This document shows positions 33,065 to 34,061 of a stretch of DNA of 64,000 nucleotides, one piece after another. Origin of the DNA: a virus; IMG/VR virus record IMGVR_UViG_3300009103_000004, positions 64,001 through 128,000 of that record. The stretch is one strand, 5' to 3'. The number at the start of each line of letters is the position of its first letter. Position 1 is the first letter of the stretch. The notes under the pieces were generated by a model that saw only the letters and a program-made list of their open reading frames with translations, searched no databases and was not told where the DNA came from. Both the position numbers and the translations under genes were made by a program.

Positions 33065-34061
33065 AACATAACAGAGCTTATACGAGCGTAACGTAACCCC
33101 CGTAACTTATCCCAAACAATCACATACGTAACTTGCCAAATCAGACAAGACACATCGCTACAAATCTCAAAACAACCCATCTTAGCTAAACCCACCAGAT
33201 CAGACAGAACATACCATATCATATTTTAACTCAGCTTAACGAGACACAACTCGACTAAAGCCATACCAATTGCTCAACATATCTGACCTAAAGCAACCCA
33301 GCTCATCCAAACGGAGCAAATCGAAGCTCGCCGGAACCCAACTCATCTTAACCTATCTGACATACCAGAACTGATACCATCTCATAACAGCGAAACTCAT
33401 CATAACAGAGCTGACTCAACAAAGCGGAACAAGTCTCATCATAGCGAAACTCAACAAAACAGAGCGGAACAGCCAAATCTTACCAGAACAAAGCGAAGCT
33501 TACCCCAGCTGAACTTATACTATCTTAACCCAGCTAATCAAATCAGCCACATTGGAGCGGAACTTATCCCATCTGAACCAGAAGCAACTTGACTCATCGT
33601 ATCTGCCGCAACTGATCGCAAAGCACCGCAACATAGCACACTAGAGCATATAATACCAGATCACATCTGCCGAAGCGAAACATAACTGAACATATCTTAA
33701 GCCAACAGGGCTCAACGAAACATATCTGACTTAACAGAACGTAGCCCAACTAAACACAGCAAAAGACTACTTAACATGTAACGCCATATCTGACTTAACA
33801 CAACTCGGGGCAACTCAGCACGTAGCATACCTACCGAACTTACGAGAACTTATCTGACTTAACGGAACGTATCTATACAAATCTCAGCCCATCCCATCTT
33901 AACTTATCTGACATAACAGAGCTGAACAAACCTGGCCGGAACCAAACCCATATCAACTCAGCTCGACAAAGGGGCATCGAATCTGACTTAACAGAGCATA
34001 GCTTATACGAACGTAGCAAAACGAATCCCAGCTAGACGAATCTGCCATAGCAAAACGGAAT
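33065..34061 (-). ncRNA. 5-nt-period guide-like array (GHT-NN)n, about 14 full units
   Basis: Plus strand reads A[ATG]C-NN in phase; boundary ATC-W-G[AC]C (first triplet AGC at 33409, AAC at 33468) at 33140, 33199, 33281, 33355, 33409, 33468, 33542, 33601, 33665, 33724, 33788, 33852, 33906, 33981, 34040. Confidence 0.88.

Follow-up and report, generated by a model that had tools for sequence, protein, structure and literature searches.

VIPR systems, which were published only in 2026, consist of a lone RAMP protein (Vipr), an accessory vap gene and vrRNAs built from GGY/NN pentamers or from pentamers with a related consensus (10.64898/2026.04.26.720920). On the target one base is skipped for each guide dinucleotide (NN), mostly the wobble base of a codon, and targets lie on either strand without a PAM; staggered vrRNA arrays, whose units overlap by 1 nt, are described in the same work (fig. 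S18; 10.64898/2026.04.26.720920). In the solved complex one protomer is bound per repeat, and at every step three scaffold bases and a single target base flip out (10.64898/2026.04.26.720927). Natural targets documented so far comprise satellites, prophage regulators and further VIPR loci. VIPR acts inside coding sequence too, namely on the active-site-coding stretch of a satellite recombinase (10.64898/2026.10.15.759431). The non-GGY trinucleotides named in the text of a study on non-canonical repeat units are GAC, CAC, WGT and TGH (10.64898/2026.10.21.760802). The main texts of the VIPR papers make no mention of methyltransferases as VIPR targets.

Here, we analyzed a 64,000-nt window (positions 64,001 to 128,000 of IMG/VR record IMGVR_UViG_3300009103_000004) from a marine phage, whose source record is a 167-kb, 94%-complete viral genome. 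A preliminary description, made from the letters of this window, had read part of a pentamer repeat as eleven guide dinucleotides that decode to the catalytic loop of C5-cytosine DNA methyltransferases, in an orientation opposite to that of the other decoded units. To this reading we add that the locus is a VIPR vrRNA and of a kind already known. Published work covers this kind of system along with its skip rule, either-strand targeting, staggered arrays, non-GGY scaffolds and the idea of catalytic-core targeting; what is new is a single motif IV guide that recurs across lineages, scaffolds and orientations.

Organization of the VIPR locus

The region of the array (Table 1) is without an ORF and consists of a pentamer repeat that reads G-H-T-N-N on the minus strand. 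This trinucleotide is related to the published GGY consensus and is not GGY itself; both the pentamer period and its phase were confirmed. The units measure 54, 59, 64, 74/75 and 82 nt, being longer where a boundary is degenerate, and successive units are set apart by 1-nt phase slips with the pattern G[T/G]C-W-GAT. On the minus strand the partner gene is followed by vipr and then by the array, and the array lies downstream of vipr with the same strand arrangement in every related locus. Both the asymmetry of the scaffold, with G-H-T resembling the published GGY, and the position of the array downstream of the minus-strand vipr gene argue that the RNA is the minus strand. The hairpin that separates vipr from the first array unit could be a leaky terminator, an attenuator setting the ratio of guide to protein, or a processing or leader element. 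In two stretches of the array, namely the 187 nt after the Walker A guide (33358-33544) and the distal units of 82 and 90 nt (33053-33283), an internal boundary or slip phase is not recognizable, and the promoter-distal end therefore looks more decayed. BLASTN found no counterpart of the array in the phage collection, and a search against Rfam returned nothing relevant.

Table 1 Features of the VIPR locus, in positions of the 64,000-nt window.
Feature	Position	Strand	Basis or location
Staggered vrRNA array, about 13 units	33050..34060	-	Pentamer period and phase-slip boundaries
vrRNA unit 7: 11 pentamers (G-H-T scaffold plus NN), then boundary GGC-T	33545..33603	-	Parse of the array
Eleven NN of the preliminary description at 5-nt spacing: AC GG GG TT CC TG CA GC TT TC GT	33549..33600	+	Sequence parse
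Hairpin, 12-bp, GC-rich, weak T-run	34078..34108	-	Between vipr stop codon and first array unit
vipr gene, 286 aa, RAMP protein, YRP thumb motif and G-I-G-E-W-R-P glycine loop	34133..34993	-	Match to PDB 36pp_D
Conserved partner gene, 216 aa, presumed vap	35019..35669	-	Adjacent homologues in related loci

The assignment of the 286-aa protein to Vipr is based on its match to PDB chain 36pp_D ('SUSP1 Vipr protein'), which was found with the single sequence (phmmer E 1.7e-5) and with a family profile of 12 sequences comprising the protein and 11 relatives (E 1.5e-13). The alignment takes in the thumb R of the YRP motif and the W-R-P of the glycine loop and extends over only about 56 residues. 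For the AlphaFold model of the protein (pLDDT 76.7), the best folds were Csm3/Cas7 subunits of type III-A complexes. The glycine loop at residues 260-273 reads G-I-G-E-W-R-P here and G-V-G-D-W-R-P in SUSP1; the Asp contacting the first scaffold G in SUSP1 is thus a Glu here, and the scaffold G-H-T of this clade has lost the second G. This exchange of Asp for Glu may represent a change in specificity. Homologues of the protein (44-62% identity) come from metagenomes only, mostly marine ones, and a search for related loci with Vipr in viral contigs returned nothing.

Homologues of the partner gene adjoin vipr in at least six loci (L009, L013, L014, L016, L017 and L032). The 216-aa partner protein gave no match in Pfam or among PDB sequences and no fold match with Foldseek, where the best fold was RctB domains 2-3 (E 0.012). 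No nuclease domain was detected in it, which hints that the system may be of the silencing kind.

Compared with the type II VIPR of Escherichia phage SUSP1 and of a Pseudomonas fulva prophage (PDB 36pp), the locus is alike in its lone RAMP protein with one partner gene, its RNA of 5-nt tandem repeats, its NN with one skip per step on the wobble base and its targets on either strand; likewise, it is phage-borne and shows no self-targeting. It differs from the SUSP1 system in the scaffold (G-H-T instead of GGY), in its short, staggered units without a 3' pseudoknot tail, and in the Vipr protein itself, which is longer (286 aa, the solved chain having 202 aa) and can be aligned in the thumb and G-loop only. 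Moreover, the partner protein shows no relationship to the vap genes identified so far and cannot be equated with vap1-6, and the target is a methyltransferase motif, whereas satellite and prophage genes are targeted there. With the published staggered arrays (fig. S18; 10.64898/2026.04.26.720920) and non-canonical units (10.64898/2026.10.21.760802) the locus shares the 1-nt overlap or slip, the absence of a spacer-repeat structure and a non-GGY trinucleotide. Similarities to the backbone of Class 1 CRISPR systems (Cas7/Csm3) are the RRM fold, the glycine-rich loop, the thumb and a periodically interrupted guide-target pairing. Unlike in Class 1 CRISPR, there is neither a repeat-spacer array nor cas1/cas2, and three guide bases plus one target base are displaced per step as compared with one in six in CRISPR.

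Guide unit 7 matches motif IV of C5-methyltransferase genes

Unit 7 is enclosed by the boundaries ATC-A-GCC (33542-33548) and ATC-T-GCC (33601-33607), which lie 59 nt apart. On the plus strand each NN between them is followed by a 3-nt scaffold, mostly A-N-C with the deviants ATT, GAA and GAC, and the parse into eleven NN proved exact and free of any phase error. Taken as codon positions 1 and 2, these NN decode to T-G-G-[FL]-P-[CW*]-[HQ]-A-[FL]-S-V, and the minus-strand NN of the unit form the complement of the coding strand at motif IV of C5-methyltransferase genes (TGGFPCQAFSV). Motif IV of C5-cytosine DNA methyltransferases holds the catalytic Cys.

The skip-rule test of the discovery preprint was run with the eleven NN of unit 7, which form a gapped pattern of 22 bases. 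In viral contigs the pattern with a 1-nt skip gave eight perfect matches, and none were obtained with skips of 0, 2 or 3 nt or with the reversed control of the 1-nt-skip pattern. A genome collection with one genome per species (185,579 species, 596 Gb) contained 22 further perfect matches to the 1-nt-skip pattern, as compared with about 0.07 expected. All 30 matches (8 viral and 22 genomic) lie in frame on TGGFPCQAFSV of C5-methyltransferase ORFs, where AG and the next methylase motifs come after and the skipped wobble bases vary freely, and all but one or two of them sit in long ORFs. For three of the target genes (L068-L070), the comparison with PF00145 gave E-values from 1e-81 to 1e-91. The gapped search suggested by the preliminary description returned perfect matches only in C5-methyltransferase ORFs, as it had predicted, and its decoding is borne out as well, since all perfect database matches fall on motif IV of PF00145-type genes, where the skips lie on wobble positions. 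When the first NN was left free, 77 viral matches were found, all on motif IV, with V (42), C (24) and T (8) as residues before GG. The 167-kb phage genome itself has no self-target of unit 7, the best site reaching 7/11 NN (16/22 bases), and no PF00145 or other C5-methyltransferase gene was found in this 94%-complete sequence.

With the minus strand as RNA, unit 7 is antisense to its target gene, and in this it departs from the other decodable guides of the array (HsdM, GGCT, Walker A and unit-11), which are in RNA sense, just as the preliminary description had stated; for the GGCT guide the sense orientation is shown by its target match. The opposite orientation of unit 7 is not anomalous, because published VIPR systems bind to double-stranded DNA and can silence a target from either of its strands.

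The breadth of the guide was assessed in a phylum sample of 301 genomes centered on one perfect-match genome, 130 of which carry PF00145. A site with at most three base mismatches was present in 22/301 genomes, as compared with 2 control matches, and a site with at most one mismatch in 2/301, one of which is the perfect-match genome at the center of the sample. Among the 30 top-scoring PF00145 genes of this sample none was a perfect match, and 8/30 reached 9/11 NN, which is the 80% threshold of the discovery preprint. A guide directed against the whole C5-methyltransferase family was considered and rejected, as perfect matches are rare both in the 301 genomes and among the 185,579 species. This rarity indicates a guide at the level of a subfamily: unit 7 perfectly fits one horizontally spread C5-methyltransferase subfamily and not the family as a whole. 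How far it reaches beyond this subfamily depends on the mismatch tolerance of this Vipr clade. The sources of the matches include Campylobacterota, single cells of marine Bacteroidetes and gammaproteobacteria, Firmicutes, an archaeon and many viruses.

The closest published precedent is vrRNA4 of SUSP1, which is directed against a satellite excision recombinase (10.64898/2026.10.15.759431). In both cases the footprint lies inside coding sequence on a catalytic-core stretch and is read at codon-determining positions only, so that escape would require breaking the enzyme. For the SUSP1 guide, which serves a single satellite family of one host, experimental tests exist, whereas the guide described here is known from sequence and matches a subfamily found in many phyla and in viruses.

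Recurrence of the motif IV guide in other arrays

The identical eleven NN at 5-nt spacing had no match in viral contigs, and relatives of the guide were found through Vipr homologues and by a metagenome scan for a 9-NN core at 5-nt spacing. Five other arrays of the Vipr clade (L009/L010, L014/L015, L016, L017/L030 and L042) carry the same guide with 10-11/11 NN, in the same orientation as unit 7 and with differences in the first NN only; the Vipr homologues beside them share 46-53% identity. Between the arrays of the clade, identity for the motif IV guide amounts to 93% in the NN, 59% in the scaffold and 45% in the free middle base. The NN are thus conserved over the scaffold, which is the reverse of the usual vrRNA pattern and is what selection on guide content would give.

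This pattern also bears on the alternative that unit 7 is an inherited relic that no longer works, a reading we consider clearly unlikely. It would be in line with the degenerate scaffold triplets of the unit, where TTC and AAT take the place of G-H-T at 2/12 positions on the minus strand, and with the terminator-like hairpin (34108-34078) between vipr and the array, which may cut the array off from transcription. However, frequent internal degeneracy is known from working vrRNAs (10.64898/2026.04.26.720920), all 22 guide bases of unit 7 still match real methylase genes perfectly, and decay would not leave the NN far better conserved than the scaffold between arrays.

The array in our window has one motif IV guide only. 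Four of the sibling arrays hold two to three different motif IV guides each (L009:1780-2150, L014:5220-5920, L016:4910-5770 and L017:7070-7870), with the variants xGGFPCQAFSV, TAGFPCQPFS, AGFPCQAFS with an AGY serine codon, and GGPPCQAFS. Together, these variants resemble a small panel that would span several methylase subfamilies, and even different families of serine codons.

The metagenome scan for the 9-NN core yielded 30 matches, 9 of which lie in pentamer arrays, while the rest look like chance. Outside the clade the core was found in three other lineages. The first (L020:2300-2450, minus strand) is a canonical GGY vrRNA of about 16 repeats that is antisense to motif IV and whose NN spell an extended motif IV, roughly SDVL[I/M]GGFPCQAFS. 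The ORFs neighboring this vrRNA are not recognizably Vipr, and it may be a solo vrRNA like those of the October 2026 preprint. The second (L032:540-610, minus strand) is a GGY array with motif IV in RNA sense over 13 NN (GGFPCQAFSVAGK). The short repeat AAATCATATTCA borders it on either side, and upstream of it lies a homologue of the 216-aa partner protein with 24% identity. The third comprises L025, L029 and L040, which form a clade with an N-G-N scaffold and have a Vipr relative alongside. Altogether, the motif IV target has been acquired or kept in at least four VIPR lineages that are distinct in their scaffold, and in both orientations.

Target ownership, proposed mechanism and significance

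Further genes follow several of the perfect-match methylase genes. In a single-cell genome of a marine Bacteroidetes (L052, 3903-5510) a Bsp6I-type endonuclease gene (RE_Bsp6I) comes directly after the methylase, and in a gammaproteobacterial MAG (L046, 6438-7932) it is a PD-(D/E)XK endonuclease gene; at a third site (L055) an unassigned ORF follows. In such methylase-then-endonuclease operons (L052, L046), a block of transcription at motif IV would also cut off the endonuclease gene.

To narrow down the owner of the target, the flanks of 99 methylase targets (825 kb) were searched with the other guides of the array, which gave no matches at 80% or more of the NN; shuffled guides likewise gave none at this threshold in the 825 kb. 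In five genomes with perfect methylase targets, the HsdM and GGCT guides had 3-mismatch matches only. In the flanks and genomes searched, the guides of the array did not converge on the same element. Restriction-site avoidance in the phage genome gave no signal either, with an observed/expected ratio of 0.99 for GCNGC and of 0.77-1.05 for common 4-cutter sites. As a separate observation, CGATCG (observed/expected 0.22) and GAATTC (0.50) are depleted in the phage genome, in which short palindromes are not generally avoided. The target might belong to a rival phage or mobile element equipped with a protective methylase, or it might be part of a host restriction-modification operon. Because an enzyme that already exists would survive transcriptional silencing, newly expressed targets, that is incoming or induced mobile elements, might be favored.

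We interpret unit 7 as a working methylase-directed VIPR guide, with a probability of roughly 0.78 and with the mechanism assigned by homology. The recurrence of the same guide in several unrelated VIPR arrays suggests that the viruses carrying it probably silence C5-methyltransferase genes in hosts or rival elements. Transcription of the array would proceed on the minus strand, together with vipr and the partner gene or after them, and the 1-nt phase-slip boundaries would delimit the units in which its RNA is cut or used. Judging from the solved SUSP1 complex, each G-H-T triplet would be occupied by one Vipr protomer that leaves the eleven NN exposed, and these would pair with the coding strand across the TGGFPCQAFSV codons while every wobble base is flipped out. 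The resulting filament of protein, RNA and DNA would cover about 32 bp and prevent transcription of the methylase gene and, in the same operon, of a downstream restriction endonuclease gene. For the G-H-T scaffold this proposed mechanism is carried over from the SUSP1 relative, and the scaffold here is without the second G that the SUSP1 Vipr contacts.

One might instead assume that the guide acts on the methylase mRNA and not on DNA, so that pairing would block translation or trigger decay. As the complement of the coding strand, unit 7 is also complementary to the mRNA, and in SUSP1 VIPR a duplex of guide RNA with single-stranded RNA is possible in vitro; in cryo-EM, however, filaments on RNA targets were mostly incomplete and no triplex was formed (10.64898/2026.04.26.720927). 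All methylase guides of this Vipr clade share the antisense orientation, but common descent explains this equally well. Moreover, the other decodable guides of the same array are in sense and cannot pair with mRNA, and the array of L032 has motif IV in sense orientation, which altogether makes an action on mRNA very unlikely. Finally, each NN allows one to three amino acids, from which a favorable peptide can be picked, but a resemblance to motif IV by chance or through permissive decoding is practically ruled out by the controls, since the test was made on DNA and not on the peptide and gave 30 exact 22-base matches in one gene family and one frame where about 0.07 were expected in the genome collection, four control patterns gave zero, shuffled guides gave none at 80% or more of the NN in 825 kb, and the guide recurs independently in other arrays.

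As a probable guide against methylase genes, unit 7 extends the published idea that a guide which skips wobble bases can track a protein motif through very divergent genes. With its eleven natural steps on a non-GGY scaffold and dozens of known perfect targets, it lends itself to testing mismatch tolerance and strand rules. Taken with the HsdM guide of this array, the motif IV guide suggests that phage VIPR also interferes with DNA methylation or restriction-modification. More tentatively, and as a possibility we would not yet call probable, catalytic motifs of methyltransferases may form a recurrent, convergently acquired class of VIPR targets, which phages address with panels of variant guides (GGFPCQAFSV, TAGFPCQPFS, AGFPCQAFS with the AGY serine codon, and GGPPCQAFS) that in combination would reach several methylase subfamilies. 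As many of the target genes head methylase-then-endonuclease operons, phages would in this way shut down the restriction-modification modules of their hosts or rivals. If true, this would represent a new RNA-guided form of anti-restriction or epigenetic sabotage.
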